Assembly: GCA_963674705.1 (NCBI GenBank)
Contig: OY771506.1
Span: forward strand, 1,696,001-1,760,000
DNA length: 64,000 nt
Reading direction: 5' to 3'
Origin: Phycisphaeraceae bacterium
GTDB lineage: Bacteria; Planctomycetota; Phycisphaerae; Phycisphaerales; Phycisphaeraceae
Below, piece after piece: positions 39,598-56,130 of this stretch (its first letter is position 1; each line of letters opens with the position of its first letter). The notes below the pieces were generated by a model that saw only the letters and a program-made list of their open reading frames with translations, ran no database searches and had not been told where the DNA came from. The position numbers and the translations under genes were made by a program.

Positions 39598-40965
39598 ATG
39601 AGCGATTCAGCCCCTTTAATGTTGAGCGTGAGTGGGATGCGCGGCCTGGTGGGCCGATCCATCACGCCTGATGTTGTTGCACGTTATGCGGCAGCTTTTG
39701 GCAGTTGGTTAAGACAATCCACTGACGCGGCCACGCCGCATGTTGTTCTCGGGCGAGATTCCCGGCCGTCGGGGCAGATGTTTGAGATGGCTGCTGCCGC
39801 GGGCTTGATCGCTGCTGGTTGTCGTGTCACACGCATCGGCATCATCAGCACGCCCGGTGTCGCCATCATGATCGGCCACCACAAAGCCGAAGGCGGTATG
39901 GTTATCACCGCCAGCCACAACCCGATCATCTGGAACGGTGTGAAAGCCCTACGTCATGACGGCGCAGCGCCCCCCGCTGACCAGGCGGCCCAGATCATTC
40001 AGCGTTATAAAGATAGTGACCTGGATTACGTTCCCGTTGAACAACTGCACGCAAGCGGTGAAGACAACACCGGCGTGAAAGTCCACGTCGACAGCATACT
40101 ACCGCACGTCGATGTGCAAGCCATTAAAGATGCGAAGCTCAAGGCCGTGGTGGATAGCGTGAACGGCGCGGGCGGTGATGAAGCGAAAGCCTTACTCAAG
40201 GCGCTGGGAGTTGAGATCGTTCATATGTATCCCGAGCCGACAGGCATCTTCCCGCATACACCTGAACCGACCAAGGAAAACCTTACCGAGCTGAGCGCAA
40301 AGACGGCTGAATGTGGAGCCGCCATCGGCTTCGCACAAGACCCGGACGCAGATCGTTTGGCGGTGGTCGATGAAAAGGGAACCTACATCGGCGAGGAATA
40401 CACGCTGGCGTTATCTGTAATGCACTTGCTCGAATCCGGTGGTACAGCGGTCGCCAACCTGTCCACCAGCCGGATGATCGACGACATCGCGGCGAAGGTC
40501 GGCGCGAAAGTTCAACGCACGGCGGTCGGCGAAGCAAACGTGGCAGCGGGCATGGCACAATGTAGATCGGTCATCGGCGGCGAGGGTAACGGCGGCGTGA
40601 TCTGGAGCAAGGTCAGCGGCGTACGCGACAGCCTCGTCGGCATGGCCCTACTACTGGAACTGCTTGCTAAACGCGGTAAACCGCTCAGCGAACTCGTCGC
40701 TGAAGTCCCCGCATACGCCATCGTCAAGGATAAGGTTGATGCGACTCAGCAACTGATCGATCAGATCAAGCCCATTCTCTCTGAAGCATTCAAAGACCAG
40801 AAGCTCGATACTCAGGACGGCGTGCGTATTGATTGGCCCGACCGTTGGGTCCACGTACGCCCGAGCAATACCGAGCCGATCATTCGCTTGATTGCGGAAG
40901 CTTCAACGCAAGACACAGCCGAGAAGATGATCAGCGATGTGCGTGCTGCACTCGGCTTGGGCTGA
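39598..40965 (+). CDS. glmM: Phosphoglucosamine mutase / phosphohexomutase
   Basis: ITASHNP, DPDADR, GGEGNGG, RPSNTEP. Confidence 0.88.
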   Translation: MSDSAPLMLSVSGMRGLVGRSITPDVVARYAAAFGSWLRQSTDAATPHVVLGRDSRPSGQMFEMAAAAGLIAAGCRVTRIGIISTPGVAIMIGHHKAEGGMVITASHNPIIWNGVKALRHDGAAPPADQAAQIIQRYKDSDLDYVPVEQLHASGEDNTGVKVHVDSILPHVDVQAIKDAKLKAVVDSVNGAGGDEAKALLKALGVEIVHMYPEPTGIFPHTPEPTKENLTELSAKTAECGAAIGFAQDPDADRLAVVDEKGTYIGEEYTLALSVMHLLESGGTAVANLSTSRMIDDIAAKVGAKVQRTAVGEANVAAGMAQCRSVIGGEGNGGVIWSKVSGVRDSLVGMALLLELLAKRGKPLSELVAEVPAYAIVKDKVDATQQLIDQIKPILSEAFKDQKLDTQDGVRIDWPDRWVHVRPSNTEPIIRLIAEASTQDTAEKMISDVRAALGLG

Positions 40966-40997: not shown

Positions 40998-41546
40998 TCA
41001 CCAGTCTGAACGGATCATCGCCTCGGCGTTCATTCGTGGTTTATCCACCGGCGTGAAAGCGACCTTCAAGAGCGTGGCCTGCTTGGCGATACGCAGGTTG
41101 TCTACGCCCAGGCGGAACAGGTAGCCGCGTGTGATCGGGTCGTAATGCTCTCGTTGTTGGGCGAGCGTCATCGTTTCCGCATTCCATGTGTATAGCAAAC
41201 GTTGTGGGGCGCTTCCCAGTGATTCATCGACGCTGTATAGCTCGATCCTGAAGGTCCCCGCCGCCTTCATCGGGTCACCCATCTGGTCGAACAACTCGAA
41301 ACGCGCTTCGAGGATCGCTCGGCCGGACTCCTGGATGAACCGCGTTGACGGATAAACCCGGATACTGGTCGGCTCCGGCGTCCAATACACCGCTGGTTGT
41401 CCCGGAGGCTCAGGGCTCTCGTTTATCGCCGGCGTTGTCTGTTGCGCCGGCGGCGCCTCGCAGCCCACAATCAGCAACAACATCAGGCACACCAACCACC
41501 TGATCGATGAAGTCGCTACGCCCGTGATGTTTATCCGTGGACCCAT
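40998..41546 (-). CDS. Hypothetical lipoprotein
   Basis: Lipobox IVGC, Pro-rich linker, beta-rich domain. Confidence 0.7.
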   Translation of the reverse strand: MGPRINITGVATSSIRWLVCLMLLLIVGCEAPPAQQTTPAINESPEPPGQPAVYWTPEPTSIRVYPSTRFIQESGRAILEARFELFDQMGDPMKAAGTFRIELYSVDESLGSAPQRLLYTWNAETMTLAQQREHYDPITRGYLFRLGVDNLRIAKQATLLKVAFTPVDKPRMNAEAMIRSDW

Positions 41547-41581
41547 ATGCTGAAAAAGAATAGATCGCTTACCCGCCTGTA

Positions 41582-41827
41582 TCAAGAACCGCCTGAATCT
41601 TCCACGTTCGTGGCGACACGCTGGGCGTCGATCGATGCCTCGGCCTTCACATATCCCAGCGACGTCGCCAGGATCACGAGCAACGAGGTAATCGACGTCG
41701 ATGCATCCACGATCGCGCTCTCTTGGCCGGGCCAGAACAGCACGATCAGGGCGGTGATCTGGGCGGAGACCGCCAGGATGAACTTCCGGCTGGCCCAACG
41801 GGGTATCGTCGTTTGTGTTTGTGACAT
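41582..41827 (-). CDS. Holin-like two-TM protein
   Basis: SRKFILAV motif plus two TM segments, 81 aa. Confidence 0.55.
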   Translation of the reverse strand: MSQTQTTIPRWASRKFILAVSAQITALIVLFWPGQESAIVDASTSITSLLVILATSLGYVKAEASIDAQRVATNVEDSGGS

Positions 41828-41863
41828 AGGGAATTCCTTGGATTCGTTTTTGAAGGTTTTGTC

Positions 41864-42121
41864 TCAGGACGGAAGGATTTGCTTGATAATCGTCTCGGTT
41901 ATATTCAATAGCCGCGATGCTCGGATCAGGGTTGCTTCGTTGATGCCGGCTTCTCGCATCGCTGCGATGAACTGTGGGTCATCCCGGAGCAACTGCACCG
42001 CGGATTCCACCAGACGCACCCGATCGATCGCCTCGGCCAGGTGAGGGTGCCTCGCCGCCCATTCATTCCAACGGACATCGATCTTCTCGCTGACAAGCGT
42101 ACGCAGTTCCTGGCTACTCAT
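41864..42121 (-). CDS. Small hypothetical helical protein
   Basis: Start overlaps upstream stop; MSSQELR. Confidence 0.65.
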   Translation of the reverse strand: MSSQELRTLVSEKIDVRWNEWAARHPHLAEAIDRVRLVESAVQLLRDDPQFIAAMREAGINEATLIRASRLLNITETIIKQILPS

Positions 42122-42611
42122 TTGTCGTGTTCCTTTGCATGACATCAAATCCATGTAACAGTTGCTCGAGGTTGTCACCGGTAATATCTTCAAGCAGCCC
42201 TTCTTGCTGTTCGATTAGTACGATGGCTCGTTTTGTTGCTGATGCAGCGGTGCGTAAGTTTTCGGCACGACCGCGTTGTGCTTCAGCCAAACTTGCCTGG
42301 TGCGTCAACAGGGTCTCTCTTGCCATCACATACACAGCTGTGGCTTCACTTACCCATTGCGGTGTTAGTTGTTCAGCCCGTTGCAGATCATGCAGGTATG
42401 CATCCTCAAGTGCATCGAGGTTATTTCGTGTATTAGCCTGCTCACGTTCAGCATCGTCTTCGAGCCTTGCGGATTCTTCGGTTAGTGCACGCTCTGTGAT
42501 CTGTAGCAGCGGCACGACGGATGAAGGTGTGCTGCATCCGCAAAGAATAATGATCGCAGAAAGAGCCAGAAACAGCAGACTCCATTCAGATCGTCTTGTG
42601 ATCCATGTCAT
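42114..42611 (-). CDS. Coiled-coil lipoprotein (spanin-like by position)
   Basis: Lipobox LCGC then long alpha-helical region. Confidence 0.6.
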   Translation of the reverse strand: MTWITRRSEWSLLFLALSAIIILCGCSTPSSVVPLLQITERALTEESARLEDDAEREQANTRNNLDALEDAYLHDLQRAEQLTPQWVSEATAVYVMARETLLTHQASLAEAQRGRAENLRTAASATKRAIVLIEQQEGLLEDITGDNLEQLLHGFDVMQRNTTNE

Positions 42612-42855
42612 GATGCATCTTCTCCAGGAGTTCTTTGAGTTGCAGTTGAGTCCGGTCGAATCGCGCAATCGCACGCGTGTTCTGCCTGACGAGCTTGACT
42701 AATGTGTTCAGCTCGTGGTGTTGTTGCTGTAGATGGATGTGGGCCTCATTAAGCTGCGCCTCACGCTTGCGCGACATCAAACGCTCCCACACCCAAAGCA
42801 TACCCATCAGGCCCGCCACGCCGAACTGTGTCAGCGGTTGTATCGCATCCATCAT
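42586..42855 (-). CDS. Single-TM coiled-coil protein (BhlA/UviB holin-like)
   Basis: QFGVAGLMGMLWVWE then SRKRE and coiled coil; RBS gaggtg. Confidence 0.55.
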   Translation of the reverse strand: MMDAIQPLTQFGVAGLMGMLWVWERLMSRKREAQLNEAHIHLQQQHHELNTLVKLVRQNTRAIARFDRTQLQLKELLEKMHHDMDHKTI

Positions 42856-42877
42856 CTTGAACACCTCTTGTGTGGTG

Positions 42878-44653
42878 CTAGTAAACCATCGTTATGGCAG
42901 TGGTTCGGCCACGCGTCGGATGCATGGCAAAACGTGTTTGGACCGAACGGATAGTTCCGCCAGATCGTGTTGCCGATTGGGGGAGCCCGTCGATAGCCTT
43001 GTCTAACCCCTTGACTTCAAGCAACCGATCACCTGGTTTAAGGAAAGGTCTGGTTCCCGTAAGCACAAGCGTTGCACTAGCGCCTCTTATATGGCTACCG
43101 TTGGCGTGCCTTGTAACACGATCGGTCAACCATGCGAACATAGCCTGTTGGTCATCAGATATATCCGCCTGCAAGTTTCCCATCGAAAAATCCGAGTAAT
43201 GAATGCTTTGCGGATCTATCCTGGCAAATCGGAACTGATCCGACACATCTAACACTTTCGGATCAAGCGTGCAGCGGAACGGATTACCAAACCAGCGGCT
43301 TAATTCGATAGGCTTTGGGCTTGTAAGACTGGCTGTTACACGCACGCGTGCAGTGCCGTTCTTCGCTGCCGCCAGGAAGTCCATGGGTAGTGTTTTCGGA
43401 TCGAGATAAATCCCAGCCCGATCGGTCAGGATAGCTGAGGCCATTACAATGCTGACCCAACTACTGCCAGCATTAACGCTGACTTCGATTTCAGGCTTGC
43501 GTGGATCGCCCCACTCATCGAGTGTCAGGTTGTCTTCAAAGCGAAGCGGCTGTGGATTGATACCGCTGGTGCTGAAGAACGCATTCAAGTTGAATGCCTG
43601 GCCACGGTTATATGGTGACAGAGTGTAATAGCCATCTTCATTGAGTACCCAACGCCGATATACGTCGGCATACAAAACAAAGTTCGAGCTGTCATCCTTG
43701 TCGTACTCGTCATCAGCCCGTCCTTCCAGTGCAGGGTCCCAGCCGCCGACCAAATCAAACGTTGATTCCACTCGCCAGCCGTCGGCTCGGGCGATCCAAA
43801 GTCGAGCTGCGGATGTGGGTTGTAGGGTGTTGACCTCGATCACCTCGCCGATGGGGTTGCTCTCACTTGGCCAATTGATTCTGATCGGCCGACCAGCCGA
43901 CGCTGGGCGAACGACGCGGCGCTCGATGATGACACCGCTCTCACATGATAGATCACGTTGAACTACCAGATCGTACGTATCAAGCAGGTCCTCAAGTACA
44001 TCGCGTATCGGTTTGCGTAGATCGACCGTCTCCGACAACACACATTCTGAAAGCTGACGGGGTAGACCAGTTGTTGATAATTCCAAGTTGGCTAATGCAG
44101 ATAAAGTCCTGATCGCCTCGCCCACGGTCCACACTAAGCCTGAATCTTCTTGTAGAACATACACCCACGAGCCATTGAATATGACCTTGTTGGCGGAACA
44201 ATTAGCACTTACGCCGATCTTTAAGATCCCCGAATCCATCGTAAATAAGATTCCGCCTGCCCCGATCCACCAGATATCGGTCATTGATTTGTCTGTCAGT
44301 TCGGTCCATGCATCACGCAATTCAAAATGTAATTCGTGTGTGCCTGCCGCTTCGGAAGTATCAAGCTGATAAAGTCGGCCGTTCGATAATACGGACCATT
44401 TTGTCAGCCCGTCTGATAGCTGTAAGGGGATAGCAATCGTGGCTTGAGCATTGAGCCATCGTGAGCGGGTACATGATGTGATTGTGGCATCGTTTGAGAC
44501 AAGTTGCGATGTACGAATGTCTAATGGGCCGGCGACATGATGCGACGCGACCGAAAGGCGTGGTTCCGGGACGCCATCGATCAGCACGACAGGTTCAGGA
44601 TCGTCGGTGATGGCTGATTTCGCTAATTTGTCAAGAGATGCGCAAGCGGTCAT
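42878..44653 (-). CDS. Putative virion tip/baseplate-hub-like protein
   Basis: 591 aa beta-rich ORF, ATGA-coupled to upstream gene; function inferred from position. Confidence 0.45.
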   Translation of the reverse strand: MTACASLDKLAKSAITDDPEPVVLIDGVPEPRLSVASHHVAGPLDIRTSQLVSNDATITSCTRSRWLNAQATIAIPLQLSDGLTKWSVLSNGRLYQLDTSEAAGTHELHFELRDAWTELTDKSMTDIWWIGAGGILFTMDSGILKIGVSANCSANKVIFNGSWVYVLQEDSGLVWTVGEAIRTLSALANLELSTTGLPRQLSECVLSETVDLRKPIRDVLEDLLDTYDLVVQRDLSCESGVIIERRVVRPASAGRPIRINWPSESNPIGEVIEVNTLQPTSAARLWIARADGWRVESTFDLVGGWDPALEGRADDEYDKDDSSNFVLYADVYRRWVLNEDGYYTLSPYNRGQAFNLNAFFSTSGINPQPLRFEDNLTLDEWGDPRKPEIEVSVNAGSSWVSIVMASAILTDRAGIYLDPKTLPMDFLAAAKNGTARVRVTASLTSPKPIELSRWFGNPFRCTLDPKVLDVSDQFRFARIDPQSIHYSDFSMGNLQADISDDQQAMFAWLTDRVTRHANGSHIRGASATLVLTGTRPFLKPGDRLLEVKGLDKAIDGLPQSATRSGGTIRSVQTRFAMHPTRGRTTAITMVY

Positions 44654-46791
44654 GCGGATGCTCCTTGTACCTGCAGGTATGCTGTCGGCGTCCCTGCAGG
44701 CTCAAACCAATCAGAGAAAGGTGTGTATTGCTCGACACCATCGTGCGAAGCAAACCGCCAGCGATAACGCGTCTTTGTTGTGGGGAGCGGCAAAGAGACT
44801 TCGATAGTATGGCTCAATACGTCGAAGTCAGGCGTGTCAACAACAGTTACCGCTTGACCGGTCACCTGGTGCAGCAGTTCAATCCATTGAATACCTGAGT
44901 CGCCAAGTCTGCTACTCCAGATGGCCGACAGTCGAACCTCACCATTTTCAATACATAATGGCCAAGCTTCGACATCAGGCCAGGCAGGCATCGTGATCGT
45001 TTGAAGTAACGCACCATCCACGCGCTCGACACAGATGCTCCTGCTCGATGCCTCGAGCCTGCCTTCAGAATCACTGCGACGAATCACATAGTGCCAGATG
45101 CTGTTTGAGGCCGGCAGGTCGTTACTCAAATTGATAGAAGTTGAATCGGCCGACAACACATAACTTGGCGACGTTACATCCATCTCTTCCAGTGATGCCA
45201 ATGGCCCGAATAATTCGATCCCCTGCTTGGGCATCATGACCTTCATCAACGGGTCACCCACCAGATAAAAGCCAGATCGCAATACAGGCTGTGCGACATG
45301 CCATGCTTCCGCCAGCGTCCAGCCATGAGTGAGTGCGCCAAAGAACGCATCCACGTCAGGAATCGCCGTAATGGGATTGTCGCGACAGGATGCAATAGCT
45401 GCAGCGTATCCCGCATGAATCGGCGTATCGATCCAGTTACCCGGTGTTTCACTACGTAACGTCGTCGCTGAAGCCCCAAGGTATAGTTGTACGCATACCG
45501 CTCTCTGGCCCGGCGGATCAACAAAGATATTGGGGTCAGGCAATGACGAATCCCAGCCCCAGTAAACGCCATCGCCAGACACATCAGCGAAACTCGCTTC
45601 TTCGTTGCTTGCCGGATCGCCACTTAACACAATCGGTAATCGGGTTTGCATGCTACCCATCCCTGTCGTCCAATCCAGCATGCCGGTAAACGCCTGTTGA
45701 TAAGTTGGCTCATCCCCGACGAACGGATCGAAGTAGATCGTGGATTCTGCACTGTTAAGCCCCGAGTTATTGATTGTTGTCGCGCTATCGAGCACGTTGT
45801 ATGCCTGCTGTAAATCATGCGCATCGAAACGCGCCGTCATTCTGACGCCGGATAGATCGTTAAAAGAGAGCCGTTGGAGTTCGGCCGGGGAGGCATTCGG
45901 ATTGGTTAACATACCTGCAGTTAGATTGTTGGTATGTATGAGCGCAGGAATCGCTTCAATCGGCCCCTGTCCCGTGAAGTCGACGTATCCGGGCGCTCGG
46001 TAACCTATCAATATGCCCATGATCTGGTTCATCAGATGATTGTCAGTCAGATAATCATCAATCTGATTAACCATCGACACATACTCAGCCGCATCAATTA
46101 TCTCTGTTACAGGCAAAACCAAACCAAGAAGATTAGCAAACGGTATGTCGTGTAATTGCCGGTATGCCTCGACCCATAGTGCCGCATCGGCAACCGCCAG
46201 GTTGTACACCACCAGCCAGCGTGCCGGATCTCCTGCGTGCTCTTGCGCAGGCTGCACGGTCACCGGTCCGATGTATTCATCCGCAAGTATCAATTCATCC
46301 AGAAATAACTCACCCGTTACATCGGTCTGCTTATTAATAACACCGAACAGGATGGTCTTGATCCCAACACCGCCCAGATCAGCACTTGGATGATCCACTA
46401 GCACACCATTGACCCAGAGATTCAAGACTCCCCCGCTGCTATCCAACGCGACTTCAATACATTGCCACGAGATCACACCATCCAGGATTGCCGACGCATG
46501 TACAATACCGGGTGTGCTTGCAGTGATAGTGCGAGAAGACGAGTCATAGCTGATGCGCAGTACTTCTTTACCTTGTTGATCCAGTCCTGCAAGCAGCACC
46601 AGGCACCCCCCATTGATCTGTCGGGGGTTCAGGACAAAACGAATATGTAGAAGCGACTTCTCGTTCTCCAAATCATGTCGGATATATCTGCCCTCATCAC
46701 CAGATGACAAAGTCACTTGCAGGCTTCGGCCTCCGTCCTTCGGCCGATCGGGAAATGTGCATGTGTCTGTTTGGTTCAGCATCGTGCCCAT
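44650..46791 (-). CDS. Multidomain protein: lectin-like N-terminus plus TIGR03790-like domain
   Basis: WLVVYN..Y...IP.ANLLGL, ARFD, YWGW, GWTLAEAW..LVGDPL. Confidence 0.65.
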   Translation of the reverse strand: MGTMLNQTDTCTFPDRPKDGGRSLQVTLSSGDEGRYIRHDLENEKSLLHIRFVLNPRQINGGCLVLLAGLDQQGKEVLRISYDSSSRTITASTPGIVHASAILDGVISWQCIEVALDSSGGVLNLWVNGVLVDHPSADLGGVGIKTILFGVINKQTDVTGELFLDELILADEYIGPVTVQPAQEHAGDPARWLVVYNLAVADAALWVEAYRQLHDIPFANLLGLVLPVTEIIDAAEYVSMVNQIDDYLTDNHLMNQIMGILIGYRAPGYVDFTGQGPIEAIPALIHTNNLTAGMLTNPNASPAELQRLSFNDLSGVRMTARFDAHDLQQAYNVLDSATTINNSGLNSAESTIYFDPFVGDEPTYQQAFTGMLDWTTGMGSMQTRLPIVLSGDPASNEEASFADVSGDGVYWGWDSSLPDPNIFVDPPGQRAVCVQLYLGASATTLRSETPGNWIDTPIHAGYAAAIASCRDNPITAIPDVDAFFGALTHGWTLAEAWHVAQPVLRSGFYLVGDPLMKVMMPKQGIELFGPLASLEEMDVTSPSYVLSADSTSINLSNDLPASNSIWHYVIRRSDSEGRLEASSRSICVERVDGALLQTITMPAWPDVEAWPLCIENGEVRLSAIWSSRLGDSGIQWIELLHQVTGQAVTVVDTPDFDVLSHTIEVSLPLPTTKTRYRWRFASHDGVEQYTPFSDWFEPAGTPTAYLQVQGASA

Positions 46792-47478
46792 GAAACCCCC
46801 GATGCCGTGGCGGCTTGGTAGTGTGCGTAAATGCGTTCAGTAGATAGCGCATGGTCATAAATCGCGAGTTCGTCCAATGAACCGTAATTAAAATCACTAT
46901 TGGCGGATTGATTAATCAGAAGTGTTGAATCCGCCGTGTTGATGATCGTGCTGCCGGCTCCTGCTAGTACTGAAGCAGACAACAAAGCACTATCCAAGTA
47001 GAGCGAGAATTCATCACAGCGCGTTGCACCAATAGGGAATGTTAACACCAGGTGATGCCATTGTTCGTCAAGTGAAAGACCCGTGACGCCAAATCGGCAA
47101 TTAACCACTGCTACGGATACTTCATCGGTGGTGTACGTCATTAACAGCCTTGTGCCCGCAGATGTATTTCCGTAGTTGATACCGCGATAGGCCACTGTGC
47201 TGCTATTAGCTTTAAACCATAGTTCAATCGTGCGCTCGCTTGCACCAACCGGGAGCCAACCGGTCTGGCTTACACGCAGCCCGCCTGTTCCATTTGATTC
47301 AACAGCCGTATCGCTATCGAGAATCAGTGGCCCGGTCGTCCCCCATGTCAATACACCATCAACTTGAGCGTCTTGGTTCCCGGTTTCATCATGAGCGGTT
47401 GGGCCGTTTGATCCTCCCAGTCGAAGATACATCAACGGGGAATCCGCCATGACTTCGCCGCGATAACTGAGCCGACTA

Positions 47479-48519
47479 GAGCGTCTTCCAATCTCATGTA
47501 GCATACCCGCAGCTGCGGAAGTAGTTGCGGCACTCGTCCAGTGATACCGCACGCAACGCCCGACCGATCGCCTCAATCAGTTTGTCGCTGGTCCGCGCGG
47601 CGGCGGCACGCAGCAGGGCTTTGACCTTGCTCCACATCTTCTCGATCGGGTTGAAGTCCGGTGAGTACGGCGGTAAGTACCACAGGTCACAGCCCGCCGC
47701 TTCGATCGCTTCACGCACCCCGCGCACCTTATGCGACGCCAGGTTATCCATCACGACGATCTGGCCTTGCTTTAGTGCCGGGGCCAGGCAACGCTCGACG
47801 TAGCCGCGGAACAGCGCCGCATCCGTCGCGCCGTCGAAGGCCAGCGTCGCCCGTTGGATCACACCCTCACAACCGATCGCGCTGAGCATCGTCGTCGTAC
47901 GCCAGTGGCTGTGCGGCGCCGCGGCGTCCAGCCGGCAACCGCGTCCGGCCCAGCCCCGCAGGCGGGTCATGTTCGTCCTCGCGCCCGATTCATCCAGGAA
48001 AACAAGCTGCTTAGGCTCGATGAACCGTGTGGCGATGCGGAAGTTCACACGCTGCTGCTTCACATCCGCGCGGTCCTGCTCGCTGGGCCGTAATGACTTT
48101 TTTTAAACGTCCACCCCAGCTTCCAACGCACCGTCCGCCACATCGTGCCCAGCCCGCAACGGATGCCCAGCTCACGCTCACAACGCACACGCAACGCATC
48201 CAGCGTCGTGTCCGGCTTCTGCTTGAGCATCGCATGTACACGCTGCAGGTCTTTGCCGGCGAACCGGCTGACGTAGTCGCCGCCCTGAGGCCGCGGCGCG
48301 ATCCCCTCGCCTTCACGACGCCGTTGCTTGAGCCGACGCACCCACGAGGCGCTGACCGAGAACCGCTTGGCCACCTCACGCGTGCCGTGCCCGGCATCAC
48401 ACGCCGCCAACACCCGCTTCCGCAGATCCATTGAATATGCCTTCATCAAAGCCTCCTTGCTTGAAGGCACAGCATAATCACTTGTGTACAAGGGCGCTAC
48501 AGTGGCGTGGAAGATGCTC
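47479..48519 (-). mobile_element. IS630 family insertion sequence (1041 bp)
   Basis: TIRs gagcgtcttcca / tggaagatgctc (11 of 12 match), flanking TA at 47477-47478 and 48520-48521. Confidence 0.95.
47494..48446 (-). CDS. IS630 transposase, two ORFs joined by a -1 frameshift
   Basis: ORF A MKAYSMDLRKRV (HTH); slippery TTTAAAAAAAG near 48097-48107; ORF B FLDESG, MDNLASH, LPPYSPDFNPIE. Confidence 0.92.
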
Positions 48520-48612
48520 TAATAGGTGGCGCCTGCAACTCGCCCCATGCAGGCACCTGGAAGTCAATATGTTTATATACAGTCATGCCGCTTCTCGCCG
48601 ATTGGTTAGGGA

Positions 48613-49065
48613 TCAAACACTGAAAATATGTTCGATACGCCGATCGAGTATTTGTGTGATCTGTCCGGATGCGATCGTGACTTCCGCCAGTTTCAGGTGC
48701 GCCGTGCCGGGCCAGCCAATACCATCTAGCCCCGCACCAATACCAGCTTGGCCGGCGTCGTTGAATAGCCACAGGTAAACTGTGTCGTTGTTATAGGCAG
48801 CAAGTTCTAGCGTTTGCCCGGCACATTCGAGCACTACCCCCGAGATACTCGCCCGACCCGGTGCAATCAGCACACTTGTGCCCGAGCCACCGTCACGACA
48901 GACACGCAATGCACCCAAAGAGGATTCGGCCAATAGATGAAGCGTGCGTATCAGCCATTCGTAATAGGGCTGCAGGCCGTTCGGTGGGTACTCAAAACCG
49001 GCAACCGCATGCCGAGTACCGACAAGGCTATCGATTTCGATGCTGGTAAGTTCCTGGATAGGCAT
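48613..49065 (-). CDS. Hypothetical virion-associated protein
   Basis: 150 aa, IAPGRA.ISG..HLKLAEVTI..ILDRR, reminiscent of tail-fibre attachment domains (inference). Confidence 0.55.
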   Translation of the reverse strand: MPIQELTSIEIDSLVGTRHAVAGFEYPPNGLQPYYEWLIRTLHLLAESSLGALRVCRDGGSGTSVLIAPGRASISGVVLECAGQTLELAAYNNDTVYLWLFNDAGQAGIGAGLDGIGWPGTAHLKLAEVTIASGQITQILDRRIEHIFSV

Positions 49066-49099
49066 GTTGTGATCCGATTCTTTATTTGTTGCTTGCTGG

Positions 49100-49831
49100 T
49101 TACGCGATCCTGTCCCACACAAACGTGCTTGGCGAGTTAAGTTGAAGACCTGTTACTGCCGGCGGCAGAAGTTCGGTATTTTGCGTAAGCTCAACTGGCA
49201 ACGCGACCGACTCGCCCACGCCGCTGCCGGCTGAAAGATTCAACGCGTGTTCACCCGCGTCGGTTGCGCATTTCCATCGCCACATCGTCCCGCCATAGCC
49301 CAGTGCACCAGCCCCAAAATCACCGATGCCCAAACCCAAGCCAAACGCATCGTGGAATGTAATACTTCCATCCGCCAACTCCCCGGACTTCATATCAATG
49401 TCAGTCCAAAGAGGACTCTCGCATACGACGCGCCCGTCCAATTCGACTTGGATCAAAGTATCGAACGGCAATGACTCATCACGGATCACATCAATTGAAA
49501 GTGAATCCGATATGCGGGGTTGCCATGCTTTCAATAACCCCGGCTGTGCCCGCCATACTGCGTCCGTTTCATCCATCGGCACCGCAAGCAATTCAACACG
49601 ATGTGGCCGCGTTCGGTCCAGCTCAATCATCACTTCACGCTGAGATACATCCAGTGTCACATCGAATAATGCATCATCCACGTAGATTTGTACCAGACGC
49701 TGCCCCTGCTGCGGCGCCCGCCACCACACGTGCGCCAGGTTTGGATGTTCGCCACCTGTTATCGCAACTGGCCTGGCCAGCACCAGTTCAAATACATCCT
49801 GCGTTGCGTTCGTGGTGATGAAGCTACTCAT
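49100..49831 (-). CDS. Hypothetical protein
   Basis: 243 aa, ATGA-coupled, GLGLGIGDFGAGALG segment. Confidence 0.65.
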   Translation of the reverse strand: MSSFITTNATQDVFELVLARPVAITGGEHPNLAHVWWRAPQQGQRLVQIYVDDALFDVTLDVSQREVMIELDRTRPHRVELLAVPMDETDAVWRAQPGLLKAWQPRISDSLSIDVIRDESLPFDTLIQVELDGRVVCESPLWTDIDMKSGELADGSITFHDAFGLGLGIGDFGAGALGYGGTMWRWKCATDAGEHALNLSAGSGVGESVALPVELTQNTELLPPAVTGLQLNSPSTFVWDRIA

Positions 49832-50196
49832 GGCTTCACCTGCAGATATTCGATCGTGTAGTCACACCTCCACCGGGCACCGATGCGTATAAACGCACCC
49901 GACTTGAAACTGATCATCACACAGTCTGTCCACGCCTTACCATGCTCATCAAATAGAGTGTGTGTCAGACCATCAAGCTTGCTCTGTATCGCATCAATCA
50001 GTGCCTGCAAATCCAATGACGTATCCGCGATTAAACAGCCAACCTGGTCTATCTGCCTGACTTGCTTGCCTTCGATGTCCAGCCGTGCGCCGTAAGAGCC
50101 CGGTGTATTGCGGATCGTATGACGAAGCTTGATCGGCCCCATTTGCAGCACAGCCGTGCCCGAGGCAAATATGGCGTCGTTATCAAGTAGTACCAT
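49828..50196 (-). CDS. Hypothetical protein (distal-tail/tube-fold-like by pattern)
   Basis: 122 aa, position after adaptor; ends YTIEYLQ. Confidence 0.5.
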   Translation of the reverse strand: MVLLDNDAIFASGTAVLQMGPIKLRHTIRNTPGSYGARLDIEGKQVRQIDQVGCLIADTSLDLQALIDAIQSKLDGLTHTLFDEHGKAWTDCVMISFKSGAFIRIGARWRCDYTIEYLQVKP

Positions 50197-50226
50197 GATA
50201 GTGCTCTCAATGGAGTTGCTATTTAT

Positions 50227-50865
50227 TCAGATCCGCGTCATGACGGTGCTGCCAAGCGCGATCCGTCGATCCACGACACCATCACCATCTACATCCAGCA
50301 GCACCGTTGCTTCCGCGCACGCCTCCCTGAAACGTCTGCGGTATTCACTCGCTTTCAGCATCAACGTGTCGTTATCTCCCACCAATGATGCTGCTCCGCT
50401 ATAGATCACTTCGAGTGTGCCCAGTGCCTCAATCCGTGCGAGTAGATCGATCGACATCACTGAAGATTCACCCACTTCACACGCTGCATCTTCATGCTCG
50501 ACACCAATCAGACGCATCAAGCCTGTGTGTACAACTTCGGCCTGGGGGCTGAATGTCCGCGCGATCAGCTCAAGGTTGGATCCGTCACCCCCCGGTATAG
50601 CCGCTTCCATATCCGATGCCCGCGGTAACGACACCTGAAGCGTATTTGCATCAATACGCTCCAGGACTTCATGAACGACACGGTTAAGCAACACAACACA
50701 TCCTGCATCAATACCCGCGGCGACGAAGTCCGCTGAATCGCTGGTCAACGTCGTGCCGGTGAGAACAGCATCTTCCACCTTCAATCGCTGCTGTGCTGCG
50801 AAAGGCACATCCTCAAACACGGCGGGTTCAATCGCCAACAGGTCTCGGTCGGTGGTAAAGCTCAT
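50227..50865 (-). CDS. Putative head-tail adaptor/connector
   Basis: Directly after capsid gene; helical core with beta insert, C-terminal LDVDGDG; RBS gagg. Confidence 0.55.
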   Translation of the reverse strand: MSFTTDRDLLAIEPAVFEDVPFAAQQRLKVEDAVLTGTTLTSDSADFVAAGIDAGCVVLLNRVVHEVLERIDANTLQVSLPRASDMEAAIPGGDGSNLELIARTFSPQAEVVHTGLMRLIGVEHEDAACEVGESSVMSIDLLARIEALGTLEVIYSGAASLVGDNDTLMLKASEYRRRFREACAEATVLLDVDGDGVVDRRIALGSTVMTRI

Positions 50866-50899
50866 GACTTACCTCGATAAATATGAGTTGGATGGAATT

Positions 50900-50927
50900 G
50901 TGTCGGCAGCGTTCAAGCCGCCGACAC
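50900..50927 (-). terminator. Hairpin downstream of capsid gene
   Basis: Minus strand gtgtcggcggc-ttgaac-gctgccgacac with a weak U tail. Confidence 0.55.
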
Positions 50928-50979
50928 TTTGAAATAGAAGGTTGCGATCAAATTCGGGATTAAGATTCAGGGGTCAGCT

Positions 50980-52149
50980 TCAGGCATCCGCAAGCCCATC
51001 GATCAGGCCATGCCCTTGCTCGTTACGCAGTTCGAGTGTGTACTCGCCGATCACCTGGCCTGCCTCGCGGTCACCTGTCGAAGCCAGTTTCTTGAAGCCG
51101 AAGCTCCTGCCGGTCAAAGGCAAGACATCGATCCGAGATGAATCCAAGAGCAAAACGGTATCGGTCGGTACCCACCGCGACAGGACCACCCGACAGACGC
51201 CGAAGTCGGATTCATATGTGCTGACCATGTCCCGATAGCGAGAGCTGCTCTCACTGTATCCTCTGCTGCCGGAGATGAAGCTGTTGATCCGTCGCTTCTG
51301 ATATCCACCAACCAGAATCGTGTCGATGTTGCCGGCCGACTGCTCCCAGATTAGACGCAACGCAGTGTTGAGTTGATCTTCCGTCAGTTGGTTCGATCCC
51401 GTGCCGACACCTTCAGGGAATCCATCGACTCCATTCGTGAAGATGTTGGTTTCCAGGAACGGGATGATCCCCTTCATGGTCCTTCGGGTTGAAGCATCGC
51501 CTTGGGGATTCGCTGAGGGGGCTACGCCGTTGATCACGCAGTTCTCCAGGTCGCGGATCAACTCGCGCAGGCGCTCCTGTTTCTGGTAGTCCAGCTCATC
51601 GCTTAGGCCGATCTGGTTTGCAGCCAGTTGTGAACCCGAAACCTCGACGCTTGCCGTGAAGATTTGTGTGTGGTTGGTTCGCCGTACACGGTTGGTGAAT
51701 CGTGCGCTCGGTGCATCGTCACCTTCCAGTGCCGCGTTGCCTAGAATCCTGATGGGTGAGTCATCAACCAGGCCCTCCGCTGTTGTCCCGCCATAACCAC
51801 GGATGACGGTCAGGTCGTCTGCCGCTACGTTGGTCACGAGCATGACTTCGCCGGACCCTGCGACACGGATCTGATCGCCCACTCGGAAACGATCACCGTG
51901 CCCAACCGTAAAAGTTGCTTCGGTCATCGGCGATGAAATCACCGGGTCCTGAATACTGTCAGTATTCGGAAGCAAAGAGTCTTCCAACCATTCATGCACC
52001 GTGCTGCCTGTCGATCTTTGAGGATCGCCCAAATGATCGAGTAATGGCGTTTCGAACGGGCTGATGATCCCGATGATGTCGGAAATATCTTCGACGATCT
52101 CAGGCAGGCCGGCGCCGGCAGAATAGGTGGCTTTTCCTGTAAACGACAT
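50980..52149 (-). CDS. Major capsid protein, DUF5309/SU10-like
   Basis: EDISDII..ISPFETPLL, HEWLEDSL, N.TQIF...VEVSGS, YESDFG, LASTGD...QVIGEYTLE.RNE. Confidence 0.85.
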   Translation of the reverse strand: MSFTGKATYSAGAGLPEIVEDISDIIGIISPFETPLLDHLGDPQRSTGSTVHEWLEDSLLPNTDSIQDPVISSPMTEATFTVGHGDRFRVGDQIRVAGSGEVMLVTNVAADDLTVIRGYGGTTAEGLVDDSPIRILGNAALEGDDAPSARFTNRVRRTNHTQIFTASVEVSGSQLAANQIGLSDELDYQKQERLRELIRDLENCVINGVAPSANPQGDASTRRTMKGIIPFLETNIFTNGVDGFPEGVGTGSNQLTEDQLNTALRLIWEQSAGNIDTILVGGYQKRRINSFISGSRGYSESSSRYRDMVSTYESDFGVCRVVLSRWVPTDTVLLLDSSRIDVLPLTGRSFGFKKLASTGDREAGQVIGEYTLELRNEQGHGLIDGLADA

Positions 52150-52209
52150 AGTATTTGTCCTTGTTGTTAGATTTTGAGTTCAGTGGTTTGAGACGAGTAG
52201 ATCGGCCGG

Positions 52210-52740
52210 TCAATCACGGGGTCGACGCACCCTCAGGTAACGCAGCAGATCACGTCGATCACCGGTCCTTGCCGCATCCTGAGCGGCGAGTTCGGCCGGG
52301 TCGTGGCCGGGAGTTTCAATCGTTGGCGCCATCGCCGACGATCCAGCCTCCGTTCGACGACGAAACAGGTAAGGTTTGTGACGCTTCAGGTCTTTCACCG
52401 CCATCGTCACATCCGGCTCATCCATCATCAGCACCGCTTGCTCGGTCAACAGCCGCGCCGCTTCAAGGTCAACCGTGTCGGCTTCCATCAGTAGCGCATC
52501 AACCTGCTGGCGCCTTTCCAGTGCCGTGATTACCTGGTCCGCCTCGGTGAGTTTGGTTCTTAAATCACCAAGCTCCGTATTCAATTGCTCGAGCTGCTGC
52601 TCTGCTGTCTGTGCTCGTTTGCGATAGCGGATCGCTTCACTGACTGGCACAAGCTTCTCACCTCCGATCCCTGGTTGTTGTTCGTCAACAATCACACCTT
52701 TCGTTTCAGGCGAAGATGTATCTTCGATCGATTCAGTCAT
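52210..52740 (-). CDS. Capsid scaffolding protein-like
   Basis: Acidic N-terminus, VPVSEAIRYRKRAQ coiled coil, LKRHKPYLF; lies between portal and capsid. Confidence 0.72.
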   Translation of the reverse strand: MTESIEDTSSPETKGVIVDEQQPGIGGEKLVPVSEAIRYRKRAQTAEQQLEQLNTELGDLRTKLTEADQVITALERRQQVDALLMEADTVDLEAARLLTEQAVLMMDEPDVTMAVKDLKRHKPYLFRRRTEAGSSAMAPTIETPGHDPAELAAQDAARTGDRRDLLRYLRVRRPRD

Positions 52741-52791
52741 ATGTCTTCCTGTGGGATTGATTGTGAACGGTGAAGTAAAGCACGCCGGTTG

Positions 52792-54264
52792 TTAAGCCGG
52801 GATCGTGTTTGGCAGTTGTGGCACAGCGCTTTCGGTGTATCCCAGTTCGGTCAGGACCTGTTCACGCGGCACGCCGACTTCCAGTTTCATCAGCGCGTTA
52901 CGCAGTAGCTGCGAATCCGTATCAGGCAAGGGTTCCGCCCAGTCGAGACGCACACCGCGTTCTTCCGGACCGTTCGGGAAGATGCCATAGACATCCGCTG
53001 CGTGAAGCACGAGTTCGCAAATGGATTCGATCCCGTGTCCATAGGTCAGCCGCTTCTTATCAACCTTGGCAAGCAGACCCATCATCACGATGCGTAGCGC
53101 GTTTTCGCTTGTCAGGTTGCCAACCTTTGCCCGCAGTAAACCAGCGGCCAGCGGACTGACCGTACTCGCTTTGTCCATCGCCTCACGGATGTCTGAGATG
53201 TGTGAATCTTCAGATGGGCTTTGTCCGTCCCCGCCGAACTCGATGATCTGCGCATCGGGATTGTCTGTCTGCCACATCTGCCCCGGCCCGACCGGACGCT
53301 CCGTGAACTTCTCGATGCCTTTACCCAGGTACATCTTGAATGACTGGAACGTTACCCGGTTGGCGCGATCCGAAAGGCGCGTGTTCAGTTCATCCTGTAG
53401 CGGGATCAAAGGCTCAACTTCGCTCAAACCTTCATAGAAGAACGGCTGTGAGAGGTTCTGGATATGGATAACCGGAACACGCCCCAACCGGTTCACACTT
53501 TCCGATACCAGCTTGCGACCGCCACCGAACACGCCCGGCCGAGCGCTGTATCGTTGATACATTTCGGTGGTCCACACCTGCGTGTCTTCGATCACCGACC
53601 GTTGCCTACGCCCCACCCCACCAAGCACGCGGTTGCGAACCCGGCTGAAGAAGTGTTTTTGTTCGACCTCTGGTGCCCATCGGCGCAGGTGAAGGGCGTA
53701 GGCATCAAGCCGGCGGTAGTCGCTCTGATTAACAATTGGGATCGCACGCGGTGCTTCGATCGAGTCCAGCACAATCCGGCCTGCATCGTCGCCTTCCACG
53801 ACACGCACCAGCACATCAACCGTGCCATAGACCGCGCCGAGCAACCCCAGGTCCTGGAAGAACCTCGCGCCACCATTGTGCTTGAATACACGACGAATAA
53901 ATGCCTGGATCTGCTCCGCCCGTTTGGGGTCACCCACTGCGCTCTGGATGATCAACGGCTTGCCGAACATGAAGCTGACAATCGTATTGATACGCCAAGC
54001 GATATCGTTCTCGATCACGACCTCACGTGCGGACCTCGCCCCGCCCGGCCCTAGGTCGTGGGGCGTGGTCAATCTTGCCGGCAATCCCTCTGCTTGTGCC
54101 AGTTTGTACCGCGGTCCAGAACGATCTGCACGAACAGGATTCCGGTAGTAGTCCCACAGCCGACGCAAACGTGGCTCGGTTTCCTTCTGATGTCTGTCAA
54201 TCAGCGAATCGAGCAAGGCCGGGGCAATGGTGGCTGGAATCGTTGCGGTTTCGGCGTGTTGCAT
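52792..54264 (-). CDS. Phage portal protein (SPP1 gp6-like)
   Basis: RLWDYY, V.FMFGKP, VPVIHIQN..GLSEVEPLIPLQDELN..SD, SENALR. Confidence 0.85.
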   Translation of the reverse strand: MQHAETATIPATIAPALLDSLIDRHQKETEPRLRRLWDYYRNPVRADRSGPRYKLAQAEGLPARLTTPHDLGPGGARSAREVVIENDIAWRINTIVSFMFGKPLIIQSAVGDPKRAEQIQAFIRRVFKHNGGARFFQDLGLLGAVYGTVDVLVRVVEGDDAGRIVLDSIEAPRAIPIVNQSDYRRLDAYALHLRRWAPEVEQKHFFSRVRNRVLGGVGRRQRSVIEDTQVWTTEMYQRYSARPGVFGGGRKLVSESVNRLGRVPVIHIQNLSQPFFYEGLSEVEPLIPLQDELNTRLSDRANRVTFQSFKMYLGKGIEKFTERPVGPGQMWQTDNPDAQIIEFGGDGQSPSEDSHISDIREAMDKASTVSPLAAGLLRAKVGNLTSENALRIVMMGLLAKVDKKRLTYGHGIESICELVLHAADVYGIFPNGPEERGVRLDWAEPLPDTDSQLLRNALMKLEVGVPREQVLTELGYTESAVPQLPNTIPA

Positions 54265-54319: not shown

Positions 54320-54522
54320 CACACCCTTGGCGAATCGCCTGCTTTTGAGCGCATGAAGACAGCGGGTAATGAGGGGGCCTGCTAATAAACCTCGTGATGA
54401 TCCCGTACAAGCGATTTGAGATACGCCACCAATAAGGTAAGGAAAATGTTAGGTATTGTGCGCATCAAATTGGCTATTTCGGAGTTGCATTTGAGGTCGA
54501 GTGGTGATTAAATGTGCGTAGT

Positions 54523-56130
54523 ATGGGCCGCGCTGAACAAGAATTAGTCATCTTGGAACAGATCAGCCAAATCCTTGGCGATGGTCTTGAGCTGAGCCAA
54601 GTCTTTCAACGCGCTATGGCGTTGCTGAGCGATCGGCTGCATATCCAGCGTGCAGCACTTGTTTTATGGGATCAGGCAACAGATCAGCTTCGCACGGTCG
54701 CCAGCATCGGGCTTAGTCCCGATGAGCAGAAACGGGGGCGTTACGCGATCGGCGAAGGGGTCACCGGACAGGTGCTGGCTACCGGTGAGCCCGCTATTAT
54801 CCCGGATGTCCTCAAGCACCCCGAGTTCCTCAACCGCACCGGAAGCCGGAACAAGGTCGCTCAAGAGAATCCCAACACCAAGATCAGCTTCATCTGCGTC
54901 CCCGTCCGTGATGGCGGGCAGACCGTCGGTACGATCAGCATCGATAAACCCTACATCGATGAAGAACTCCTGCATTCCGACGCCAGGCTGCTGACCATCA
55001 TTGCCGGCTCGATCGCCCAGACGATACGTATCCACGACCTGATACAGGTTGAAAAAGATCAATGGCTGGAAGAAACCCAGCAACTGCGCGACAACCTTCG
55101 CGGTAAGTACAAGTTCGACAACATCATCGGCTCCAGCCCGGCGATGTTGGATGTGCTCGCCACCATCGGCCAGGTCGCCAGCAGCCGCGCCACCGTCCTG
55201 CTCCTGGGCGAGACCGGCTGCGGTAAGGAACTGATTGCCAAAGCGATCCATTACAACTCACCACGCGCCGACCAACCTTTGGTACGGGTTAACTGCGGCG
55301 CTTTATCCCCGCAATTGCTCGAATCTGAATTGTTCGGCCACGTCAAAGGCGCCTTCACCGGTGCGGTCAAAGACAAGATAGGCCGATTCGAAGCCGCCGA
55401 CACCGGCACGATATTCCTCGATGAAGTCGGCACGCTCGATCCGCAATTGCAGGTCAAGCTGCTGCGCGTTCTGCAGGAACGTGAGTTCGAACGCGTCGGT
55501 GACCACCGCACCATCCAGGTCGATGCCCGTGTGATCGCTGCCACTAACCTCGACCTTGAAGAAGAATGCCGAAAGGGCAACTTCCGCGAGGACCTTTACT
55601 ATCGGCTCAACGTCGTGCAGATCAACCTGCCGCCGCTGCGTAAAAGACGCGAAGACATCCCCAGGCTCATCGACTTCTTCCTCGATAAGTACAACGATGA
55701 AAACCAACGCAACCTGCGCAAGATCAACCGCGAAACGCTCAACACACTCTTGCGTTATCCCTGGCCGGGCAACGTCCGTGAACTGGAAAACGCGATGGAA
55801 CGAGCCGTCGTTCTTTCGACCGGCGAAGAATTTTCCGACGATTTGCTGCCGCTGCAGATCCGCTTGTTCTCCAAACAAACACGCGGCGAAACCACCGATG
55901 CCTCGATCGAATCACTCGCGGCAAGGCTCGCTGAGCATGCCGTCAATGAGTATCAGACCTGCGAGGGCGAGGTCTACGACATCGTGATCGGTGAAATCGA
56001 AAAGCAGCTTATCCGAGAGGCGCTGGACTACAACAACGGCGTCAAGGTGCGCACCGCAGACTTCCTCGGCATCAACCGCAATACATTAAATAAAAAGGTT
56101 AAAGACCTCGGCATTGATCCCGAGGGTTGA
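54523..56130 (+). CDS. NifA-like sigma54-dependent activator (GAF-AAA+-Fis HTH)
   Basis: GAF (GEGVTG.V), [44 protein letters not shown]. Confidence 0.95.

Follow-up and report, generated by a model that had tools for sequence, protein, structure and literature searches.

Three groups of independent GTA origin are formally recognised in PMC9662315. There BhGTA is described as vertically inherited, with structural genes clustered in some 15 kb that lack TerL and a single conserved terL elsewhere. Its particle carries a flexible tail of 65 nm, its endolysin has been validated, and it has been described for one genus. The locus considered here has a similar division of parts, with a head operon inside the 64-kb window (the whole stretch of DNA that was analysed, from a planctomycete of the lineage Phycisphaeraceae) and a terminase operon beyond it. 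With slightly better than even confidence, we take it to be a phage particle system that the host has domesticated and passes on vertically, spread over two loci and GTA-like in its working; it is best read as a new, independently tamed GTA-like viriform, with packaging and delivery of host DNA as its predicted functions. No description of this system was found in the literature searched, a search of main texts outside the subscription journals.

The particle operon and its variable tail genes

Fifteen co-directional ORFs run on the minus strand from 54264 to 40998, and comprise portal, scaffold, SU10-type capsid, head-tail adaptor, tail-tip, baseplate hub and membrane or lipoprotein genes. 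The features of the locus are as follows.

54514-56130, sigma-54 activator, flank (PF00158)
54436..54455, minus, candidate SOS-type direct-repeat box ahead of the portal operon (PWM score 23.9)
52792..54264, minus, portal protein, 490 aa (PF05133, 3e-18; phrog_64, 2e-26)
52210..52740, minus, head scaffolding protein, 176 aa (PF06810, 8e-6, below cut-off; phrog_2303, 4e-4)
50980..52149, minus, major capsid protein of the SU10/DUF5309 family, 389 aa (PF17236 SU10_MCP, 4e-88)
50227..50865, minus, o4, head-tail adaptor (neck) with an inserted beta domain, 212 aa (AF2 pLDDT 93)
49828..50196, minus, o5, probable Dit-like ring protein, 122 aa (position only)
49100..49831, minus, o6, probable tail-tip or baseplate component, 243 aa (synteny with o5, o7 and the hub)
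48613..49065, minus, o7, perhaps fibre- or collar-like, 150 aa (phrog_31611 tail collar, E 0.026)
47478-48518 (about), minus, IS630 insertion, a passenger in the o7-o8 spacer (PF13358, PF01710)
46776..47450, minus, o8, LamG (lectin-fold) protein (PF13385, 2e-12; phrog_8510 virion structural protein, 6e-8)
44650..46791, minus, o9, TIGR03790-like protein, 713 aa (TIGR03790, 5e-11, below cut-off)
42878..44653, minus, o10, baseplate hub (gp27/VgrG/Tal fold), 591 aa (AF2 pLDDT 82)
42586..42864, minus, o11, small coiled-coil protein, possibly holin- or bacteriocin-release-like (phrog_1625, E 0.006; Rz-like, E 0.011)
42114..42611, minus, o12, lipoprotein, putatively spanin-like from its form and place in the operon (LCGC lipobox at residue 23)
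41864..42121, minus, o13, 85 aa, function not assigned, conserved in 16/59 loci
41582..41827, minus, o14, putative two-TM holin-like protein (two hydrophobic peaks)
40998..41585, minus, o15, lipoprotein (lipobox IVGC)
39598-40965, phosphoglucomutase/glmM-type gene, flank

A preliminary description had placed the operon between glmM and a sigma-54 activator, and both do flank the 15 ORFs; since they are lineage-specific neighbours (the activator at 11/59 loci, glmM at 12/59), they are left out of the parts of the system. The same description correctly noted the lack of a tRNA (none in the window) and of att repeats (the 20 largest families of direct repeats listed include no flanking repeat of att type), as well as a single IS insertion, which lies in a spacer between two genes; this IS630 has 11 copies genome-wide, and the close relative G004 lacks the o7-o8 copy. 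Family searches found no integrase or replication gene at the head locus, no endolysin was recognised in the cluster, scans of the sequence for sigma-70 promoters and terminators gave nothing above chance, and no RNA holder was listed.

The identities proposed for the portal and LamG proteins are borne out by family matches and those of the adaptor and hub by predicted folds, while the scaffold and TIGR03790-like proteins match the expected families below the cut-offs. The scaffold profile also matches scaffolds of related phages, whose proteins are mostly 249-332 aa long. An SPP1-type head had been proposed; the capsid protein is instead SU10-type, matching PDB capsids and, in Pfam, PF17236 only, and the nearest cultured-phage capsid is 32% identical. 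Its carbon cost is not reduced relative to 44 phage homologs. The adaptor model aligned best to the Mu neck in VIA-align (Z 8.7, rmsd 3.5, 101 aligned), with neck proteins making up many of the top rows; Foldseek gave no match for it at E<=0.001, and sequence-profile searches of the PDB with o4, o5 and the tube-like family of relatives gave no useful match.

The o5 gene has no family or PDB match, and in relatives its position is between the tube-like gene and the hub; o6 has no family match. The hub model matches VgrG/hub structures in the PDB (Foldseek E 4.5e-10), and its BFVD matches are phage tail proteins. The o8 protein is likely to serve in receptor binding and o9 is a putative accessory tip protein. 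A hydropathy scan of o11 showed no TM peak above 1.5, and o15, which is inverted in one family (f10), may be a linked host gene. Profiles from relatives found no tube-like or terminator-like gene in this genome, and there is no PF10145 match for a tape-measure gene. Because o5 has no detectable relationship to the tube-like family of relatives, the name of that family rests on position and on an Atlas lead (Phage_tube_2 on 14% of a cluster, score 0.93); that of the terminator rests on phrog_4204 at E 0.002.

Tube, terminator and hub are variably present among loci. The hub is seen at 24/59 loci and the tube-like gene in 27/201 genomes, which leaves delivery unexplained in many lineages. Many lineages keep the head only, and the tail has been lost repeatedly, which is unusual for a GTA. 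This inconstancy, alongside an adaptor kept at 48/59 loci, is what might be expected if DNA-filled tail-less or stub-tailed heads took tails from co-infecting phages, a tail piracy shown for cf-PICIs in bioRxiv 2025.02.11.637232. Such a tail-borrowing GTA seems quite unlikely here: cf-PICIs are described as requiring an adaptor and a connector, and no separate connector or stopper gene is recognised in the cluster, while purifying selection on the tip genes of this genus suggests that the particle has a tip of its own. Tail loss would also take away the usual injection route, as in a DNA-filled particle that does not transduce, whether a PBSX-like by-product, a device for regulated lysis and eDNA release, or a protected store of DNA. 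The membrane and lipoprotein genes are conserved like the head (o11 has a dN/dS of 0.019 against G004), and PBSX is described in PMC12946183 as packaging without injection. However, PBSX kills by means of its tail, the very part that is dispensable here, and the presence of LamG and hub genes implies attachment to a target cell, which makes a non-transducing particle distinctly improbable.

The terminase operon and a shared promoter box

The preliminary description foresaw an unlinked TerL, and one lies 23 kb from the head operon in an operon outside the window (C1:1768801-1774553), co-occurring with the capsid across genomes. A search of the genome for the Terminase_6C family gave no match; it was a weak Terminase_6N match that led to the gene. 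The conserved genes of this operon encode an S24 repressor, an HTH protein, ABC, GNAT and ParB proteins, a TerS-like protein and TerL. The claim that the head operon stands alone holds for integrase and replication genes at the locus itself, but not for the terminase and a repressor, which are just past the window's edge. Host genes separate the two loci, whose spacing ranges from adjacency in two genomes (G115, G049) to as much as about 1 Mb in another (G077).

Walker A, Walker B and the acidic nuclease residues are conserved in 12 host TerLs, so that the ATPase and nuclease motifs are intact. This bears on whether the shell holds DNA at all, a non-DNA capsid device having been offered earlier as an alternative. 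One genome in a single contig (G047, 99% complete) has kept the TerL operon, with no portal or capsid found, and the two loci can therefore uncouple, as an encapsulin-like nanocompartment or protein-delivery shell would allow. Portal and adaptor are nevertheless kept, TerL is intact and present in 113 of the 117 capsid-bearing genomes, and both loci share a promoter motif; a non-DNA shell is accordingly disfavoured and very improbable.

The shared motif was modelled with a PWM trained on terminase promoters from other genomes, and the box upstream of the portal ranks second genome-wide. In this genome the same box also precedes dinB, recA and the terminase operon, and only 11 of 2584 upstream windows reach the recA-level score. 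Since the motif seed was picked by eye after both promoter sets had been seen, the portal match is not fully independent; those at recA and dinB are. Elsewhere the box is less constant, scoring >=14 upstream of the portal at only 7/45 other loci (it is absent in G009) and >=14.7 upstream of recA in 5/11 genomes. Sharing with dinB and recA points to induction of both operons by DNA damage, and gives a candidate SOS box for Phycisphaerae.

On this basis, a GTA-like cycle can be proposed. DNA damage would activate RecA and so inactivate a LexA-type repressor, turning both operons on; the repressor acting at the shared box could be host LexA or the S24 protein beside the terminase operon. Portal, scaffold and capsid would build a small prohead, which TerL and its TerS-like partner would load with chromosomal DNA, the proposed cargo because the element has neither a replicon nor an excision system. 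The adaptor would then close the head, to which a tube-less tip (o5-o10) would be added in this lineage, and the holin-like and spanin-like proteins would free the particles to carry DNA to related cells, where it would serve recombination or repair.

Descent, selection and possible conflict with phages

Across 201 Phycisphaerae genomes, capsid and TerL occur together in 113, capsid alone in 4, TerL alone in 12 and neither in 72; the capsid gene is thus found in 117, mostly as a single copy and at 54-73% identity outside the genus. In a homolog search, 4446 of the 7999 candidates scored reached E<=1e-100, and no cultured strain is named among the 120 matches listed of the larger set. The trees follow that of rpoB, here the one host marker gene: strongly supported splits are shared in 15/15 cases for capsid, 18/20 for TerL and 17/20 for portal, with no strongly supported conflict for capsid and one each for TerL and portal (42 genomes; 39 for portal). 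Against G004, the 21 element genes tested all have dN/dS values of 0.02-0.28 (0.07 for portal, 0.13 for o7), and that of the capsid (0.028) compares with 0.048 for glmM.

The system is therefore vertically inherited and under purifying selection. The IS insertion, and decayed copies in G123 and G157, might be taken as signs of a decaying prophage remnant. Class-wide single-copy retention without scatter to random sites, congruent trees and dN/dS far below 1 refute that reading, which is exceedingly improbable; the proposal of a domesticated particle made in the preliminary description withstands all three of the checks set there (patchy presence at variable loci, relatives with the genes inside complete prophages, neutral decay), and is upheld by distribution, descent and selection alike.

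Phages also appear to have dealings with the system. Three phage records, unrelated to one another and each with its own terminase, bear a stand-alone, full-length host capsid gene among early genes; these copies nest inside the host clade. At least 4 genomes have a mobile element inserted in the capsid gene, and a longest-shared-word test recovered no exact att cores at the insertions. The phage copies and the insertions, together with the repeated loss of the tail from a retained head, would suit anti-phage particles. In that reading damage or infection would induce the heads and terminase, which would capture phage DNA or sequester phage tails and morphogenesis proteins in non-infectious particles, and phages would counter with their own copy of the capsid gene. 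We think this rather unlikely, as there are only three such copies (and one shortened) among 78 viral loci, one adjoins an integrase and may merely replace an integration site, and control in common with recA and dinB fits a repair role equally well. Tail borrowing and an anti-phage role both come into view because of the missing tube, terminator and tape measure, the head-only lineages and the phage capsid copies. They could be combined in an SOS-controlled, class-wide host capsid whose invariant part is a tube-less DNA-filled head, and which is an arena of conflict, borrowing phage tails or trapping phage DNA and parts, with several unrelated phages having captured the capsid gene to jam or exploit it; this is conceivable, though well short of an even chance. 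On that view the ~30-nm particles that have been imaged from Poriferisphaera ZRK32 might be what the system makes.

If the domesticated, GTA-like reading is true, it would add one more GTA origin, old enough to span a bacterial class that is common in marine and sediment samples and includes cultured members suitable for testing it. That the head is under housekeeping-level selection while the tail tube is repeatedly lost also raises the question of what useful particles need, and phage-borne capsid genes may target the system.

Comparison with known particle systems

In the viriform definition of PMC9662315, GTAs are distinguished by particle proteins of caudoviricete origin, full endogenization, often at several loci, and mostly vertical inheritance with co-diversification of the host. 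That definition also has the particle unable to package its complete genome, loaded mostly with random host DNA and able to pass DNA to other cells; bearing on the first of these are the host genes between the two loci and a scaffold shorter than those of phage relatives. Here portal, capsid, adaptor, hub and TerL are of that origin, the genes occupy two loci with integrase-like ORFs at only 2/60 head loci, and the rpoB comparison shows co-diversification. The integrase and att sites, patchy distribution and relaxed selection of a prophage are not found. Nor is this an encapsulin, a stand-alone HK97 shell with a cargo enzyme and without portal or terminase, since portal, adaptor and co-inherited TerL are present.

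Free phages with SU10-type capsids (IMG/VR) hold the TerL, portal, scaffold and capsid families together in canonical order, and differ from the host system in capsid sequence (35-42% identity), longer scaffolds and a separate clade. The cf-PICIs make adaptor-bearing, DNA-filled tail-less heads, a likeness predicted here from the genes; they are mobile integrated islands with integrase and replication genes that package their own DNA, whereas this locus is fixed, vertically inherited and without integrase or replicon. FpGTA of Faecalibacterium, according to PMC12946183, has a similarly compact TerL-portal-scaffold-capsid set and podovirus-like morphology, but belongs to another phylum and its operon I keeps TerL with the head. 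RcGTA-type systems (Rhodogtaviriformidae) likewise have multi-locus head-tail genes kept by, and co-diversifying with, the host; membership would imply an RcGTA-homologous cluster in an alphaproteobacterium, and here there are a planctomycete host, a PF17236 capsid from another phage ancestor, no carbon-cost reduction, a dispensable tail tube and a LexA-type box on both loci. The closest likeness in arrangement is to BhGTA and VSH-1 (Brachygtaviriformidae), which share vertical descent and a TerL unlinked from the structural cluster; in contrast to BhGTA, the present system is class-wide, has an SU10-type capsid and, in this genome, has no recognised tube, tape measure or endolysin.

The head locus and its unlinked terminase

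The head locus comprises 15 minus-strand ORFs read in one direction (54264 to 40998), the co-directional particle operon of the preliminary description. Family scans of the window ORFs bear out its portal (PF05133 and phrog_64), capsid (SU10-type, PF17236, 4e-88) and LamG assignments; its scaffold and TIGR03790-like calls find matches too, weak ones in both cases. The adaptor-like and hub-like genes also hold up: the AlphaFold model of o4, the fourth ORF in transcription order, best matches the Mu neck in VIA-align (Z 8.7), with many further neck proteins among the top rows, and that of o10 matches a gp27/VgrG-type hub in Foldseek (E 4.5e-10), so that on predicted structure we identify them as the head-tail adaptor and gp27/VgrG-type hub. 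As previously noted, there is no tRNA in the window and no att-like repeat flanking the locus among the 20 largest direct-repeat families, and the ORFs look intact, the single IS element, a recent insertion, being intergenic. GC content is about 0.50-0.57 outside IS630, slightly under the flanks.

Window 47478-48518, between genes: IS630, with 11 near-identical genome copies; transposase in two frames

The operon itself lacks a terminase and repressor, as first described, but both a TerL and an S24 repressor lie outside the window. The suggested genome-wide search for an unlinked TerL succeeds through a weak Terminase_6N match.

C1:1773024-1774553 (+): TerL, 509 aa, 23 kb from the portal start, outside the window
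Genome 1769779-1774553 (+): terminase operon (HTH, ABC ATPase, GNAT, ParB-N, TerS-like HTH and, last, TerL)
Genome 1768801-1769670, divergent from the terminase operon: S24 repressor

The HTH gene has two weak sigma-70 region-4-like motifs. Walker A, Walker B and nuclease acidic residues, which we take to be the functional motifs of TerL, are kept in 12 host TerLs; a shell devoid of DNA is very improbable. Gene order in the operon is preserved throughout the order and, in part, the class. Because related free phages carry the same TerL family immediately before portal, scaffold and capsid, and TerL still adjoins portal in two host genomes, gene arrangement argues that both loci derive from one ancestral phage.

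Descent, selection and distribution

FastTree trees of 42 class genomes (39 for portal) were compared with rpoB as one host marker. Splits in common with rpoB number 20/39 for capsid, 27/39 for TerL and 26/36 for portal, rising to 15/15, 18/20 and 17/20 for strongly supported splits, with deep branches poorly resolved; two strong conflicts sit inside a genus or family. The capsid and portal thus follow the host tree at strong splits, a comparison proposed at the outset. Nor is there the neutral decay then considered, since Nei-Gojobori dN/dS, computed with the closest relative, stays within 0.02-0.28 in each of the 21 element genes: 0.028 for capsid, 0.070 for portal and 0.10 for TerL, versus 0.048 and 0.024 for host glmM and mraY. 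Three more distant genome pairs are concordant wherever dS is unsaturated, and a decaying prophage is scarcely credible. An integrase-like ORF occurs in 2/60 head loci, one of them within an inserted element. The system is real, ancient and under selection.

Named records of relatives are from Phycisphaeraceae/Phycisphaerales. The capsid is encoded in at least 509 stretches among the 600 pattern-matched stretches listed, in 28/41 close relatives, in 117/201 class genomes (a count that takes in some split or partial matches) and, at E<=1e-20, in 37/301 genomes of the phylum, including 12 from outside the class. Patchiness had been a concern; presence by family is largely all-or-none (for example 12/12, 20/21 and 11/11 versus 0/9, 0/8, 0/11 and 0/5). 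Scored for both genes, with a TerL profile that included four phage rows, the 201 genomes, which are kin rather than independent, divide into 113 carrying both, 4 with just the capsid, 12 with just TerL and 72 with neither.

Seven of the 12 TerL-only loci were inspected. Five have a sibling contiguous element containing TerL, head genes, a capsid unmatched by the capsid profile, an adaptor and tail-like genes, and one has TerL alone within 8 kb. In the single-contig genome G047 (L389, G047:C1:1170000-1181000) the whole terminase operon is kept and portal and capsid were not found. The sibling terminase-head-short-tail elements, with their different capsid (L398, L399-L400, L401, L402, L403; five Phycisphaerae genomes), may represent additional domesticated elements, or else the ancestral arrangement. 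Planctomycetes outside the class have a related cluster of portal, capsid and adaptor that is followed by other genes (L191-L196, L199; families f65, f86, f48, f53).

Phages and mobile elements

Capsids of cultured phages are at most 32% identical to the host capsid. Among 78 viral loci, three phage records, each with its own terminase, hold a stand-alone full-length host capsid copy among early genes; besides the copy, two of these phages have their own portal and another capsid or capsid candidate, and in L232 the end of the upstream ORF resembles the C-terminus of the host scaffold. One viral 'provirus' record is just a host locus.

L232:6734-8183 (G501), L233:5970-7124 (G502), L262:8616-9785 (G506): host-capsid copies in unrelated phages
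L236:2759-4024 (G505): shortened host-capsid copy, likewise among the early genes of an unrelated phage
L078:4988-16500 (G024), L249:3690-10500 (G059), L251:4721-17600 (G055), L246-L248 (G161): capsid-gene insertions

The phage-borne copies nest within the clade of the Phycisphaerae (SH-aLRT 97), and two group with particular host families (support 96 and 92-94); this phylogeny indicates separate host-to-phage captures. That the system is an anti-phage trap is rather unlikely. The capsid gene is also an integration target for mobile elements, being split by serine-recombinase elements in three genomes and by a 39-kb prophage in a fourth. One serine-recombinase insertion is a satellite that encodes a capsid of its own as well as an AAA_25 helicase. 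Separately, a small element of the source genome with a ClpP-capsid-like fusion gene (G000:C1:2120158-2123162) is probably a phage satellite.

Regulation, particle form and relation to known systems

A direct-repeat motif lies upstream of both portal and terminase operons. We picked the motif seed by eye while viewing both promoter sets, and built a weight matrix on nine promoters of terminase operons in other genomes. In the source genome its 2nd-ranked site is the one upstream of portal; a Y-family polymerase (PF00817) comes 3rd, the spacer between repressor and HTH 10th and recA 15th. Several high scores precede unrelated genes, since 11/2584 upstream windows reach the recA score. The motif scores at least 14.7 upstream of recA in 5/11 genomes and at least 14 upstream of portal in 7/45 other loci.

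G000:C1 2735585, 3721438, 5458753, 1769739: candidate SOS box of the Phycisphaerae (CCnAACA, directly repeated), preceding dinB, recA, a Y1 transposase and the terminase operon

We read the motif as an SOS-type box, and the protein binding it could be canonical LexA or the S24 repressor; PMC3108266 notes that the E. coli motif is not the one used by LexA in planctomycetes. A damage-induced GTA-like particle is the best-supported reading, with somewhat better than even chances.

Tail genes are scarce. Among 59 capsid loci, surveyed as 20-kb stretches of which some were ended by contig ends, 57 have portal, 48 the adaptor family, 30 the tip-like o5 and 24 the hub, and in many lineages the adaptor is directly followed by membrane genes. 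A tube-like gene is present in 27/201 genomes, nearly all from two families, and a terminator-like gene in three loci, all of one family; neither gene, nor a PF10145 tape-measure gene, was found in the source genome. Given this scarcity, we predict a particle whose head bears a very short tail or none. The tip genes of the source genome are under purifying selection (dN/dS 0.10-0.26); heads that borrow their tails are unlikely, as is a particle that does not transduce.

Poriferisphaera strain ZRK32 yields hexagonal particles of about 30 nm, ascribed to a 21.9-kb phage in PMC10945688. The 'Phage-ZRK32' record (OP650935, L426) is marked unverified and partial; its ORFs look early/replication-type by eye, and none matches profiles of the present system. 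A 30-nm head would hold roughly 4-5 kb by an assumed packing density that overestimates RcGTA (4 kb at 38 nm). The phage may not explain the particles, which are a lead only toward the present system.

No description of the system was found in the literature searched, in line with the preliminary description. Of the six viriform criteria in PMC9662315, three apply and two others are decidable only by experiment. The system is not a member of the RcGTA family, and has a strong claim to being a new GTA-like viriform of independent origin, one in which the tail is unusually dispensable.
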